A stretch of DNA of 64,000 bases from Candidatus Wolfebacteria bacterium GW2011_GWB1_47_1 (GTDB lineage Bacteria; Patescibacteriota; Minisyncoccia; UBA6257; UBA9933): positions 350,866-414,865 of the forward strand of contig CP011209.1 of the NCBI GenBank assembly GCA_001029635.1. The letters run 5' to 3'. Each line of letters opens with the position of its first letter. Within the stretch, counting starts at the first letter, position 1. Positions 42,463-51,712 of the stretch are shown piece after piece. Below the pieces are notes generated by a model. That model ran no database searches. It was not told the origin of the DNA and was given only the letters and a program-made list of their open reading frames with translations. The translations under genes and the position numbers were made by a program.

Positions 42463-42556
42463 GGTGAGCTGCTGTGTTGCGGGACCCCGGTACTTCAGTC
42501 GCCGTACTGGTAGTACGTCTTCTTCGTACCGCTCCCGCGCCTTGCACCTCACTTAA
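42463..42556 (+). ncRNA. Conserved structured RNA-like element, copy a, directly 3' of pilC
   Basis: Core GGTGAGCTGCTGTGTTGCGGGACCCC...CGTACTGGTAGTACG...CTTCTTCGTACCGCTCCCGCGCC...CACTTAA. Compare the findings entry. Confidence 0.5.
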
Positions 42557-42589
42557 TACTACATCGTTTTGACCGCTATATTTTAAAAT

Positions 42590-44362
42590 ATGAGAATGCG
42601 TCAATCTAAACATAATAGCGGCTTTACGCTCATTGAACTGCTTATCTCTACAACGTTGTTTGCCGTTATCGGTACATCGACGTATTTTGCATTCCAGAAT
42701 GTATTGGAAGCGATCTCACGTAGTCAAGTGCGGAGCGACGCCATTTCATTGATAAAAGGAGAGATCGAAACGGTGCGTAATATGCCGTATGTCGATGTGG
42801 GTATCGAAGGAGGGTATCCTGCCGGAAAGTTATTGGCAGATAAGACACTTGCCTTCAGCGGTAATTCTTTTAGGTTAAATACCTACGTCCGCAATATCGA
42901 TGATCCGTATGATGGGACGCTTGGCGGTATGCCGAACGACACAGCCCCTGCCGATTATAAGATTGTGGAATATCAAATCGAATGTACGACCTGCGGGCCG
43001 TTTGTACCGATCGCCATGACGACGACAGTTTCCGCCAAAGGACTTGAAAGCGCCAGTACGAATGGATCCTTATTTATTACTGTTTCCGATGCAAGTGGTA
43101 ACCCTGTTCCCGGGGCTAGTGTGCATGTGGTCAATTCGAAATTAAGCCCGACCATCACTATTGACGATATTACCAACACCGAGGGGATGTTGCAGCTTGT
43201 TGATATTCCGCCGAGCGTCACGGGATATGAAATCACCGTAACTAAGGCAGGCTATTCGACTGACAAAACGTACGATCTTACATTGCCGGGCAATCCCAAT
43301 CCATTGAAGCCGCATGCAACGGTTGCGACCCAACAGGTTACTTCAGTAAGTTTTTTTATTGATCGCGTTGGAACCATAAACGTCGCGGCTAAGGATAATC
43401 AATGTGCGCCGATACCCGGGCTTGGTTTTTCGCTTTCGGGGACTAAGCTTGTCGGGACCGGACCCGACGTTCTGAAGTATCCTGCCACGACATTCACAAC
43501 CGATACCGCAGGGGAAAAGACCATTTCTAATTTGGAATGGGATAGTTATACCATTGCTAGTATTGGAGCGCTTGAATTTACCGGGACGGTCCCGTTTGTT
43601 CCGTTCACATTGAATCCGGGAGTGACTATGGACGTAGCGCTGCTATTCGAGCCAAAGACAATTAAATCGCTTTTGGTTACTGTTGTCGATGATGTCAACC
43701 AGCCGGTCGACGGTGCGAGTATCCAATTAGTCAAGACGGGGGCCTACGATCAGACGCTGTATACGGCTCGACGCACTATCGGGCAGACCGATTGGGGTGG
43801 CGCGGATTATGCCGTGCAAAGTGGTGGGGTTGGGTATGATAGCCCGACAACCGAACTACAGGCGCATGCATCAGGTAGCGGTACTACGAGTACGGAATGG
43901 GTCGTATCGAATACGTATGATATGGGAACGAACAGCATAACCTACTATCATTTGCGATTTGATGCACAGCTGCAGCCGGCACATCCGAGTCCTGACGCGG
44001 TCCGTATTCAGATTGCGACTAATAATGATAATGCGACTTGGAATTTTGTCGGTCCTGATGGAACGGACAGTTCGTACTTTACGACGAGTAACGCGGTATT
44101 ACCCACGGTGCTTGACGGTAAGCGTTACCTGCGATATAAAATCGATTTTTATCTTGACGGAGAGACGACCGTTACTTCGTTCAAAGATATTGCGATTGAT
44201 TTCAGTTCGAGCTGTACTCCCACCGGACAGGCTTTGTTTAATGCGCTTGGGCCGGGAACCTATAGTATGACAATCAATAAGGCCGGGTTCCAAACATATA
44301 TCGATGCCTCGGTATCCATCAGTGAGGATTGGCAGCAGTATAAGGCGACGCTGACAAGATGA
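42590..44362 (+). CDS. Large (590 aa) protein with prepilin-type N-terminal cleavage/methylation domain (giant minor pilin / pilus-tip candidate)
   Basis: N-terminus MRMRQSKHNSGFTLIELLISTTLFAVIG is a class III signal. Downstream domains are carboxypeptidase-regulatory-like and Ig-like beta domains. The ATG is 7 nt after TATATT. Confidence 0.7.
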   Translation: MRMRQSKHNSGFTLIELLISTTLFAVIGTSTYFAFQNVLEAISRSQVRSDAISLIKGEIETVRNMPYVDVGIEGGYPAGKLLADKTLAFSGNSFRLNTYVRNIDDPYDGTLGGMPNDTAPADYKIVEYQIECTTCGPFVPIAMTTTVSAKGLESASTNGSLFITVSDASGNPVPGASVHVVNSKLSPTITIDDITNTEGMLQLVDIPPSVTGYEITVTKAGYSTDKTYDLTLPGNPNPLKPHATVATQQVTSVSFFIDRVGTINVAAKDNQCAPIPGLGFSLSGTKLVGTGPDVLKYPATTFTTDTAGEKTISNLEWDSYTIASIGALEFTGTVPFVPFTLNPGVTMDVALLFEPKTIKSLLVTVVDDVNQPVDGASIQLVKTGAYDQTLYTARRTIGQTDWGGADYAVQSGGVGYDSPTTELQAHASGSGTTSTEWVVSNTYDMGTNSITYYHLRFDAQLQPAHPSPDAVRIQIATNNDNATWNFVGPDGTDSSYFTTSNAVLPTVLDGKRYLRYKIDFYLDGETTVTSFKDIAIDFSSSCTPTGQALFNALGPGTYSMTINKAGFQTYIDASVSISEDWQQYKATLTR

Positions 44363-44387
44363 TTTACGACCAACAACGTATAACGGA

Positions 44388-46037
44388 ATGCGAACATTTT
44401 TACTCATCATTGCTATAGGAACATTGATTATGACGCCGCTGCGTTCTTTTGCGGCGGAAGAAAAGTTTTTCGAATTCGCTACTGATGTCGGCGTGCCGAT
44501 TGAGATTCCGACCGGATCCATCGCGATCCAGGAATTCAAAGTCCATAATGATTATATCAATGCCATCGATCTTTGGTTCGATAATGCCGGATCTTCGGGG
44601 AGCGCGACAGTTACCTTTCTCGATTCTTCCAATGCCGTGCTGACATCTAAAAGCGTCACCATCGCCCCTAGCGATCCTTTTTACACAGGACAGCAATTGC
44701 ACGTCAGGTTTAGTAAGACGGTCGGCATCACGTCCGGTTCGTGGTATAAAATAAGGATCACGAGTAATGCACCCAAATTGCGGTTGTATGGCGTTAAGCG
44801 AGTTCAATTTGTCGAGCACGATGCACCGTATCCGATCGACAGCTCGGTTGGGGGTTCATCGGTGAACGGAGAATCGCAGATCGCGGTGTTTAAATTTGCG
44901 CTGTATGAAGAGACTGACGCTGAAGCCCCGATCATTACCAATGCAAGTTCCACGATCTCCGGTCCCGATACGATGCAAATCGCATTTAATGCGAACGAGC
45001 TTGTCGATCGCATGGTGTCTTATACACGTATTGGGTCGGGAATAGTGACCACGATCGGATATACCGGCAACTACTCCATTTGTTTTGAGGACATTTTTGC
45101 TTGCCCGCTTACGATTGATACCCAGCGAGATGCTCTATATACCTACCGATTGACCGTTCGTGACAGCTGGGGGAATGAAGCATTTTTTGACGGGGCATTC
45201 GAAAGTTGGAAGCCGGGCACTCCTGTCCCTCCGGCCGATCCCACCGTTCCCTTTGTGGCTCCTCCCGCAGAGGCGCCTTCATCACCGACTGAATCGCCTG
45301 TGGTTTCTGTAACGATCACCGATGCGCGCATTGTAGCGCTTGCCTATAATTCCGTGCAGTTGTCATGGAATACTAACAAGGCCGCCAATAGTTCATTGGT
45401 CGTCAGTACCGATCCTGTCGGTGCGCAGGTCGTTTCCACAGTCACTACAGGCGTATATGAATTGGTCCATACAATCTCGACAGGAAAGGGCATTGCTGCC
45501 GGAATTAATTATTATGCGACGATCATTTCTCGTGATGAGGCCGGCAGTATGGCTGCGCAGGTGCTTCCATTTACTGCTCCGAAGGCCGGTGCTGATGCAC
45601 CACCTGCCGTACCCGAAGGTTCTTCGACGCCAACAGAGACGTTGCAGACATCCGTATTGGGAGAACAGGGGCTTGTCTCCATTGTCTGGGATCCTCTTGT
45701 GGGTGGAGAACCGAGTAATGGGTATCGCATTGATATCATCGATGCGCAAGGAAATCTGATTGAATCGCGTACCGTTGCTCCGGGAACGTATGCGATCAAT
45801 GTGGACGGTCTTGCGGGTGGAGAATATCGCGTCCTTGTGTATGCCGATGAAAAAGGAGTGGTCGAAAAAGTTGCCGCACCCGCGACCGTTGTCATTCCAA
45901 AAAGAGCCGAGCCGATCGATACGTACGAACTAATCAAGCGACCGATCGTGTACATCCCATCCATTCTTTTTGCGCTGCTTATCCTGGGATTGGCTATCTA
46001 TAGCAGAGTACAAAAGAAAATACCCAATAAAAAATGA
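44388..46037 (+). CDS. Secreted cell-surface protein with fibronectin-III-like repeats and a C-terminal membrane anchor
   Basis: Signal peptide MRTFLLIIAIGTLIMTPLRSFA-AEE. C-terminal TM helix PIVYIPSILFALLILGLAIY plus a basic tail. Confidence 0.6.
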   Translation: MRTFLLIIAIGTLIMTPLRSFAAEEKFFEFATDVGVPIEIPTGSIAIQEFKVHNDYINAIDLWFDNAGSSGSATVTFLDSSNAVLTSKSVTIAPSDPFYTGQQLHVRFSKTVGITSGSWYKIRITSNAPKLRLYGVKRVQFVEHDAPYPIDSSVGGSSVNGESQIAVFKFALYEETDAEAPIITNASSTISGPDTMQIAFNANELVDRMVSYTRIGSGIVTTIGYTGNYSICFEDIFACPLTIDTQRDALYTYRLTVRDSWGNEAFFDGAFESWKPGTPVPPADPTVPFVAPPAEAPSSPTESPVVSVTITDARIVALAYNSVQLSWNTNKAANSSLVVSTDPVGAQVVSTVTTGVYELVHTISTGKGIAAGINYYATIISRDEAGSMAAQVLPFTAPKAGADAPPAVPEGSSTPTETLQTSVLGEQGLVSIVWDPLVGGEPSNGYRIDIIDAQGNLIESRTVAPGTYAINVDGLAGGEYRVLVYADEKGVVEKVAAPATVVIPKRAEPIDTYELIKRPIVYIPSILFALLILGLAIYSRVQKKIPNKK

Positions 46038-51155: not shown

Positions 51156-51167
51156 GTGTAAAACTTG

Positions 51168-51274
51168 TGCCTTTAGCGAATTGCTTTGTTGCGGGGCCCC
51201 GGCACTGCGGTCGTCGTACCGGTAAGTACGCCTTCCTTATGCCGCTCCCGCGCCGCGCACTTCATCTAAAGGCA
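51168..51274 (+). ncRNA. Conserved structured RNA-like element, copy d, between atpB and atpE
   Basis: Enclosed by a 9-bp stem TGCCTTTAG...CTAAAGGCA. Core GCGAATTGCTTTGTTGCGGGGCCCC...CGTACCGGTAAGTACG...CCGCTCCCGCGCC...CACTTCATCTAAA. Confidence 0.5.
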
Positions 51275-51377
51275 GAAGTTTTAAGGATATAAAAATAAAT
51301 TTATTTAATGAAGGACAAAAAGTATCGCCCATTCCGTTTTGTAATGGCCGGTGCGAATGTTCAAACATAATCACACT

Positions 51378-51599
51378 ATGGAAGGAATCAACCTCACTAT
51401 GCTTGCAAAGGCAATCGCCATCGGTCTTGGATCCCTTGGACCTGGTCTCGCCATCGGCATGATCGGCGCAAAGGCAATGGAAGCGATTGGACGTAATCCG
51501 GAAGCTACCGGAAAGTTGTTTGTCCCGATGTTGCTTACCGCCGCATTTGCGGAAGCTATTTCGATATACGCCTTAGTCATAGCATTCTCAATAAAATAA
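51378..51599 (+). CDS. atpE: F0F1 ATP synthase subunit c
   Basis: Hairpin of two TM helices with the conserved carboxylate ([15 protein letters not shown]). The track start is GTG 51351. Confidence 0.8.
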
Positions 51600-51712
51600 T
51601 GCGCTTGTTTGCGCATTACTGTGCTATGGGTCCCTACCAACTTGGTCGTTGTATCGGTAAACACAGCTTCCTCGTCGGTTTTCCCATGCCTTGTACTGCA
51701 TCGAACAATCCT
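51600..51712 (+). ncRNA. Conserved structured RNA-like element, copy e, between atpE and atpF
   Basis: GCGCTTGTTTGCGC...TGTGCTATGGGTCCC...GGTCGTTGTATCGGTAAACACAGCTTCC...TTTTCCCATGCC...TGCATCGAACAATCC. Confidence 0.45.

Follow-up and report, generated by a model that had tools for sequence, protein, structure and literature searches.

The stretch of DNA analyzed here, called the window in the following, comprises 64,000 nt of contig CP011209.1 from Candidatus Wolfebacteria bacterium GW2011_GWB1_47_1, and all coordinates count from its start unless a locus label precedes them. An earlier note had pointed to a family of five structured elements on the plus strand of the window, immediately 3' of pilC, two pilin genes, atpB and atpE, and all five proved to be present at the places claimed. 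They are probably copies of a palindromic interspersed repeat of about 125 nt that occurs in bacteria of the Candidate Phyla Radiation (CPR)/Patescibacteria, a small non-autonomous element similar in kind to the Rickettsia palindromic element (RPE), ERIC (enterobacterial repetitive intergenic consensus) and the Correia elements. The genes upstream of the copies are supported by Pfam (pilC/T2SSF, two N-methyl pilins, atpB and atpE). The copies, with the matches to a covariance model given as their cores, and an intrinsic terminator next to one of them are as follows.

Copy a, 42446..42571, plus strand: core 42456-42561; 3' of pilC (T2SSF, 41308-42453), the TGA of which (42451-42453) lies within the 5' arm; -55.7 kcal/mol, z -7.05
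Copy b, 48757..48881, plus strand: core 48766-48871; 3' of the pilin gene 48320-48754 (TAA 48752-48754); weakest outer stem of the five
Copy c, 49432..49557, plus strand: core 49442-49547; 3' of the paralogous pilin gene 48942-49430
Copy d, 51159..51283, plus strand: core 51168-51274; 3' of atpB (50304/50319-51155); outer stem TAAAACTT/AAGTTTTA; -55 kcal/mol, z -4.4
Copy e, 51593..51720, plus strand: core 51603-51710; 3' of atpE (51351-51599), the TAA of which (51597-51599) lies within the 5' arm; -36.5 kcal/mol, z -4.4
Intrinsic terminator, 48889..48919, plus strand: A-tract, 13-bp stem and U-tract just 3' of copy b; -15.7 kcal/mol, z -4.5

Five copies of one hairpin in the window

The covariance model built from the five copies (R1), run with filters off, returned exactly five matches in the 64 kb, with scores of 98-107 bits. 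The reverse strands did not exceed 19 bits, and a sixth copy was not found anywhere in the window. A broader covariance model (R2) gave the identical outcome over the window, all covariance-model scores of the five copies falling within 81-107 bits, and a strict pattern derived from the copies matched five times with zero matches expected. The remaining genes of the window, among them those for ClpB, ParAB, PGK, an RND pump and CTP synthase, carry no copy.

The conserved blocks quoted in the earlier note are present in the alignment of the five copies, which has a mean column identity of 71-77%. RNAalifold folds it into one rod of 36 pairs, 18 of which exhibit a double change, the proposed covarying series GCGGG/CCCGC, ACGGG/CCCGT and ATGGG/CCCAT being among these. 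When 12 nt are added on each side, every window copy forms one single hairpin of 125-128 nt (-32 to -56 kcal/mol, z -2.8 to -7). A 9-bp outer stem, previously taken as peculiar to copy d, is thus no distinguishing feature, as about nine additional pairs are present in every copy. Nor do the elements start 8-25 nt past a stop codon as had been stated, but the hairpin either begins 0-4 nt past the stop or encloses it, the latter in copies a and e. For the internal hairpin of copy c, the GGTAC arm was recognized correctly but a perfect GTACC partner is not present, the real pair being GGTAC/GTACA. The view that a shared reading frame is unlikely has been borne out, because the copies differ by insertions and deletions that are not multiples of three and no frame is consistently open.

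The pilin genes 48320-48754 and 48942-49430 represent a tandem duplication of 549 nt (76% identity, within 48320-49557), of which the element is a part. Copies b and c resemble each other far more closely than either resembles a, d or e; copy c was duplicated together with its pilin gene. The window is identical to the JGI contig Ga0209212_1000002 and 99.98% identical to GCA_003453235.1. Strain-level presence or absence of copies within this species was looked for and discarded, as the two further assemblies (99.98-100% identical) contain the same copies.

Anatomy of the unit

In the family as a whole, a single long and imperfect hairpin makes up the unit, which measures about 125 nt and contains about 45 bp. 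Its ends are defined: in 79 copies from many genomes the flanking positions -1 to -9 pair in register with +1 to +9 in 70-92% of cases, compared with 16-70%, mostly 30-55%, in frame-shifted flank controls, and pairing has reached background by positions 10-11. The outer 9-bp stem follows a weak A/T-rich consensus (wRRRAYTY ... RARYYYYw), and the second stem is highly variable in sequence. The conserved core reads yTnCTTyGTTgyGGGnCCC ... TCGGTCr, continues with an apical rTAy/rTAy hairpin and ends with CTTCCTC ... TTyCCCCrCGCCTyG. Its internal loops are asymmetric and pyrimidine-rich, and one U.G pair is nearly invariant. In most sense copies the stop codon of the preceding gene is located at or within the base of the stem, as in copies a and e of the window.

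A family with compensatory changes in CPR genomes

A census was made by searching an invariant-core pattern in 185,579 species genomes, which yielded 90 stretches, followed by application of R1 at E < 1e-4. On 678,960 bases of CPR loci (labelled by L-numbers, e.g. L091) R1 confirmed 80 copies beyond the five in the window, giving a total of 85. The hosts are metagenome-assembled genomes (MAGs) labelled as Wolfebacteria, Lloydbacteria, Kaiserbacteria, Nomurabacteria, Paceibacterota or "Saccharibacteria", or unclassified. The pattern matches in Streptomyces, Acidobacteria and other non-CPR organisms contained no copy according to R1. Six CPR genomes carry 5 to 11 copies each, with only 8-kb pieces counted. 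Carriage by phages was rejected, since viral contigs gave no match to the element pattern.

The proposal of a structured family with compensatory changes is upheld in the wider alignment. Here, 88% of the cells are paired, compared with 67% in shuffles and 35-48% when the partners are slid, 34 of the 36 modelled pairs exhibit double changes and none of 500 shuffles reaches the observed values; as the alignment had been fitted to the model, the pairing and double-change counts are biased towards structure. Pairing is also maintained by compensatory change at orthologous copies. Where copies lie behind orthologous genes of different species, most differences between them preserve the structure: seven such pairs show 50 double and 9 wobble changes, with 8 breaks, and the copies behind the EF-Tu genes in L062 and L071 (94% protein identity) differ by three double changes, two wobble changes and no break. 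Two copies that reside within thioredoxin reductase (TrxR)-like genes likewise differ through compensatory changes.

As the earlier note had supposed, the element does not belong to a described RNA family: Rfam 15 produced no match at gathering score in the window. At E <= 10, the region 48700-51800 gave one unrelated chance match outside the copies, and on the loci with copies inside coding sequences (CDSs) Rfam identified only tRNAs, which are located elsewhere. A published description was not found in the full-text literature when repeat and RNA-motif terms were paired with CPR taxon names, and the element appears to be previously undescribed.

Gain, loss and multiplication of copies

Related genomes have gained and lost copies at the DNA level. 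Scanning metagenomes with AtpB delivered 63 orthologous atp loci, of which six carry any copy and 57 carry none. The site after atpB is empty in L091 and L092, the closest relatives (AtpB 85% identical); L093 and L094 carry no copy, and other relatives likewise lack one after atpB. In L091, which was read directly, the single orthologous pilin gene is also without a copy and is followed, 17 nt past its stop codon, by a terminator (2120-2152, -17.9 kcal/mol) that is orthologous to the window terminator at 48889-48919. L091 and L092 do contain a divergent variant after atpE, at the site of window copy e, plus a stray 3' half.

In L091 (4170-4330) the variant has outer and middle stems like those of the family combined with a different core (GCCGAC...GTCGGC, and GCTTCC before TTGGTCGC), and the stray half (CCGTATTTCATCTAAATACAgaagtttta) resembles the 3' end and flank of window copy d. 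Together, variant and stray half suggest recombination or nested copies.

Copies also multiply within a genome. In GFS_12220 (Lloydbacteria), four contigs (L009, L065, L043 and L045) terminate in near-identical copies, which is the signature of a recently multiplied repeat, and in a second Lloydbacteria genome, GFS_13726, a contig (L041) ends within a similar copy.

The GFS_12220 subfamily is bracketed by TAA (TAA-GAGCC...GCTC-TAA), possibly a 3-bp duplication of a TAA target. On the minus strand of L084 (4950-5115) a 13-nt direct repeat, AAAGTAAAACACA, brackets a copy and is the only clear candidate for a target-site duplication among 78 copies. The second repeat starts 10 nt past the modelled 3' end, so that the repeated target and the 3' tail of the element, TGTGTTTTAC, are complementary. 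The idea that the element inserted into an existing terminator hairpin was considered and rejected: the empty sites in L091 do not contain such a palindrome between stop codon and terminator, and the outer stem is fixed at 9 bp.

Placement relative to genes

For the most part, copies persist in very short spacers, between a stop codon and the terminator or gene that comes next, and in the orientation of the genes. Fifty-nine of the 85 copies lie in sense orientation no more than 25 nt past the stop codon of an open reading frame (ORF) of at least 50 amino acids, and four more in sense orientation 44-129 nt past a gene. Seven copies are antisense between co-directional, Pfam-confirmed genes, three occupy 5' or divergent regions, five reside inside protein-coding genes and seven are partial or could not be assigned, several of them being cut at contig ends. 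Intergenic copies are biased about 9:1 towards the sense orientation. Antisense examples are found between a DksA-type and a ComM-like gene (L006), GT2 and Pth (L088), and UvrC and Ddl (L025). All five window copies are of the sense type abutting a stop codon, and none of them is of the type found in CDSs.

The genes 5' of sense copies encode EF-Tu (twice), L7/L12 (twice), L10, S2 (twice), S15, L33, EF-P, IF2, MreB, FtsA, FtsZ, PilB, pilins, SHMT and GDH. The earlier description of elements co-oriented with, and abutting the stop codon of, an upstream and often highly expressed gene hence usually applies across the 85 copies. Many copies are situated only 6-40 nt before the next co-directional start codon. 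A canonical intrinsic terminator follows the element at a distance of about 10-70 nt in at least 14 of 82 copies, copy b included, as opposed to 3 of 82 in the upstream control; as such textbook terminators often follow the element, the element is not itself the terminator. We infer that the copies are co-transcribed in mRNAs, either between cistrons or ahead of the real terminator. The idea that orientation is set by replication found no support, since antisense copies oppose both local GC skew and genes, two factors that are not separable here.

Copies inside protein genes

Each of the five copies within CDSs keeps the reading frame and runs antisense to its host gene. In a TrxR/AhpF-like gene (L070 and L026), query residues 275-318 remain unaligned between two stretches that match PDB 1fl2, and further in-frame copies are present in the genes for TsaD (L059), UvrC (L025) and, at the C-terminus, an ABC ATPase (L052). 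The element thus lands in either orientation and even in frame within protein genes. Peptides encoded by the antisense frames are hydrophilic (grand average of hydropathy, GRAVY, about -0.9), and those from sense frames neutral to hydrophobic (-0.15 to +0.31), which would account, at the level of the protein, for the antisense bias within genes. For RPE, inserts have been predicted to be compatible with protein conformation and function (review, PMC10969869).

Two other readings were discarded. The element is not a small protein gene, as insertions and deletions are not multiples of three and, of 74 copies, only 29-44 are open in a given sense frame and 10-41 in a given antisense frame. Fragments of an rRNA or other RNA gene, considered for the copies in long ORFs, are not an option because the host ORFs are genuine TrxR, TsaD and UvrC genes.

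In L070 (4767-4899) and L026 (5545-5680) the outer 9-bp arms serve as host codons for Q-T-P and for G-V-W, which belongs to the conserved GV[FW]AAGD motif, and between the two loci these arms differ by compensatory synonymous changes (CAA...TTG versus CAG...CTG). The TsaD gene of the Kaiserbacteria MAG (L059, 2407-3828) has, beside the insert derived from the element, a second long insertion near residues 70-150 when compared with the Pfam TsaD profile, which matches in two stretches.

A palindromic interspersed repeat as the probable identity

A discrete unit of 125 nt, several copies per genome, patchy occupation of orthologous sites, both orientations, in-frame insertions in genes and a recent burst in one genome together point to a palindromic interspersed repeat. 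In its behavior the element is closer to a small selfish insertion than to a dedicated regulatory RNA.

Several observations weigh against this identification. Sense bias, abutment to stop codons and a core that is kept across genomes labelled as several candidate phyla exceed what a neutral selfish element needs and argue for selection on the transcript or for a targeting mechanism. A transposase was not seen beside any copy or in the window, and target-site duplications are not consistent: the longest word common to both flanks averages 5.5 nt compared with 5.2 nt in the control, and there is no recurrent 3-mer. Mobility is therefore deduced from distribution only. The weakly conserved termini and strongly conserved interior are the reverse of a classical MITE (miniature inverted-repeat transposable element). 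Furthermore, the complementary strand folds more stably (mean -55.3 versus -45.7 kcal/mol), and no more than 8 of 79 copies have the stabler fold on the sense strand. With the conserved U.G pair set aside, A.C mismatches exceed G.U pairs (147 versus 61), with an equal ratio in sense-located and antisense-located copies, so that a wobble pattern differing between these two groups was rejected. A stabler complementary strand and an excess of A.C fit poorly with simple selection on a hairpin in the sense mRNA.

As an interspersed repeat in the spacers of transcription units, the element would be transcribed within the mRNA as a 3'-UTR or intercistronic hairpin, the stem of which starts at the stop codon. 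Such a stable hairpin could block 3' exonucleases or act as a double-strand or ribosome-dependent processing site, and it might thereby change the stability of the upstream cistron relative to the downstream cistrons, an effect of the kind reported for ERIC in Yersinia and for Correia elements, which RNase III cleaves. An effect on mRNA fate is plausible. In the window, by analogy with ERIC and Correia elements, the copies most likely add a stable hairpin to the 3' ends of the pilC, pilin, atpB and atpE cistrons and would affect how these cistrons decay or are processed. A protein that mobilizes or binds the element may recognize it by the conserved asymmetric core.

A bolder version, in which the repeat has become a domesticated RNA module throughout the Patescibacteria, seems rather unlikely to us. 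Here, the stem would enclose the stop codon and the terminating ribosome would melt its base, giving a switch coupled to translation that exposes or hides a site for processing, decay or binding within the conserved pyrimidine-rich loops, to be read by a conserved CPR protein. If true, the module would set the relative output of atpB/atpE/atpF, rplJ/rplL, tuf and pilins in organisms with few classical regulators, and insertional spread would amount to the distribution of a ready-made regulatory part.

Alternative explanations

It is possible, though doubtful, that the element is a dedicated cis-acting RNA of the host, a 3'-UTR or intercistronic module whose loops bind a conserved CPR protein or RNase and so set stability, processing or partial termination, with antisense copies and copies in CDSs as mere by-products. 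The strong covariation, including structure-preserving substitutions at orthologous EF-Tu and other sites, speaks for such an RNA, as do about 90% of intergenic copies in sense orientation with a stem starting at the stop codon, a core kept across genomes labelled as several candidate phyla and a position ahead of the true terminator. The upstream genes are, moreover, rich in those for EF-Tu, L7/L12, L10, S2, S15, L33, EF-P, MreB, FtsZ, pilins and AtpB/AtpE. On the other hand, orthologous sites are not conserved (57 of 63 atp loci have no copy, and the closest relatives do not share copies b and d), a second pilC paralogue of the window (59800-60861) is without a copy, and a recent burst has taken place in one genome. 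High-scoring copies are antisense, in 5' regions or inside CDSs, and neither wobble pattern nor folding energy favors the sense strand. Of the properties usual for a cis-regulatory RNA, covariation is thus present, whereas conserved orthologous position, single orientation and location outside CDSs are not. The earlier note had itself named copies inside CDSs or in both orientations as findings that would speak against its proposal, and such copies exist, albeit as a minority of seven antisense, three in 5' or divergent regions and five in CDSs among 85. Its suggestion of a 3' stabilizing, processing or partial-terminator element accordingly holds with regard to structure and placement at stop codons, while antisense, intragenic and patchy copies speak against a dedicated regulatory RNA, and a function as the terminator itself was rejected.

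We regard it as unlikely that the hairpin is conserved as a single-stranded DNA site, with asymmetric bulges read on one strand by a recombinase or by an HUH-type (REP/RAYT or IS200/IS605-like) or integron-attC-like enzyme, and structure preserved for transposition or recombination and not for RNA. Pairing and core are kept whatever the direction of transcription and also inside CDSs, stems vary while asymmetric bulges are conserved, as in attC sites and IS608 ends, A.C exceeds G.U with a stabler complementary strand, and the placement 3' of ORFs resembles that of attC. However, a recombinase or RAYT gene was not seen beside any copy or in the window, the attC R''/R' sites RYYYAAC/GTTRRRY are absent and the neighbors are core genes instead of cassettes. 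Orientation follows the genes, an effect inseparable from replication, and antisense copies oppose genes and local GC skew.

Very improbable, finally, is an unusual intrinsic terminator or attenuator, a long hairpin with an A-rich 5' base and a U-rich 3' base that mimics a bidirectional terminator: the outer stem is indeed A-rich 5' and T-rich 3' in many Wolfebacteria-type copies, positions after rplL, rpsB, rpsO, tuf, pilin genes and atpE are classical attenuator or terminator sites, and in copies a and d a scan marks the apical hairpin as resembling a terminator, but the base of the stem is weak and A/U-rich with its U's paired, T-richness of the 3' flank is modest overall, terminators with GC stem and U-tract lie 3' of no fewer than 14 of 82 copies, copy b among them, and many copies are operon-internal, so close to the next co-directional gene (6-40 nt) that a promoter would not fit.

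Comparison with known repeats

RPE are repeats of 105-150 bp with one long stem-loop that are dispersed in small reduced genomes, both intergenically and in frame in housekeeping genes (PMC2229807, PMC10969869). The CPR element shares with them, and with the protein-coding palindromes of Wolbachia, the similar length, the single long stem-loop and the many dispersed copies in reduced genomes. It also combines intergenic copies with translatable in-frame inserts in conserved genes (TrxR-like, TsaD, UvrC and ABC ATPase), is not associated with a known transposase and encodes a hydrophilic peptide in its in-gene frame (GRAVY -0.9). Unlike RPE, most copies are intergenic, co-oriented and abut a stop codon, all copies in CDSs are antisense, and the core spans genomes labelled as several candidate phyla instead of one genus. 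RPE stem from a different phylum and a sequence relationship is not expected; the likeness concerns architecture and behavior and is a functional analogy, not membership.

ERIC and Correia/NEMIS elements, which are imperfect palindromes about 107-155 bp long, occupy transcribed intergenic regions and form long RNA stem-loops; ERIC in Yersinia acts in an orientation-dependent manner through ribosome-dependent exposure of an RNase E site, and Correia elements are cleaved by RNase III (PMC2229807, PMC10969869). The element described here resembles them in size, in co-transcription with flanking genes, in its long RNA stem-loops and in occasional intragenic copies. ERIC and Correia elements differ by conserved terminal inverted repeats and TA target duplications, whereas the CPR element has weak termini, a conserved interior and no consistent duplication. 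Set beside the terminal repeats of a classical MITE, the outer 9 bp show pairing in 70-92% of copies and only a weak consensus.

Repetitive extragenic palindromes (REPs) and bacterial interspersed mosaic elements (BIMEs) are likewise palindromes that lie outside and downstream of genes. They can shield upstream mRNA against 3' exonucleases and, near a stop codon, affect translation. REPs are 20-40 nt long and mobilized by RAYT transposases, whereas the present unit measures about 125 nt and has a complex conserved core; RAYT was not seen at the loci examined. Integron attC sites are imperfect hairpins of 57-141 nt. They, too, are located directly 3' of ORFs in the same orientation, and their structure and extrahelical bases are more conserved than the stem sequence. 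The CPR element differs in that RYYYAAC/GTTRRRY is not present at the base of the hairpin, that its neighbors are atp, tuf, rpl and mreB genes and that an integrase was not seen at the loci examined. Phage T7-type RNase III hairpins contain internal loops and are positioned between cistrons or after stop codons, where cleavage leaves a protective 3' stem. Their likeness is a functional analogy only; the element described here is a dispersed repeat with insertion and deletion dynamics.

Implications

An element that resides in tiny CPR genomes and inserts in frame in essential genes (TsaD, UvrC, TrxR-like) parallels the situation in Rickettsia, another lineage with reduced genomes. The repeat has practical consequences as well: assemblies are broken at the repeat, with contigs ending within copies, spurious or extended ORFs arise from it, and intergenic regions look larger than they otherwise would. 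The covariance model can be used for its annotation. If sense copies act on mRNA, they would offer cheap and portable tuning of cistron stoichiometry in organisms that are not yet genetically manipulable.

Further observations at the loci

A second pilB/pilC (T2SSE/T2SSF) pair is located 15 kb downstream in the window (58115-60861) and is not accompanied by the element. The pseudopilin gene after copy a and atpF after copy e have no recognizable Shine-Dalgarno sequence in their A/U-rich spacers (42560-42600 and 51712-51750). Just 3' of the pilin terminator of L091 (2173-2234), a different, perfect palindrome with 25-nt arms (TGTCATTCCCGCGGAGGCGGGAATC / GATTCCCGCCTCCGCGGGAATGACA) occupies a similar niche and may represent another repeat family.

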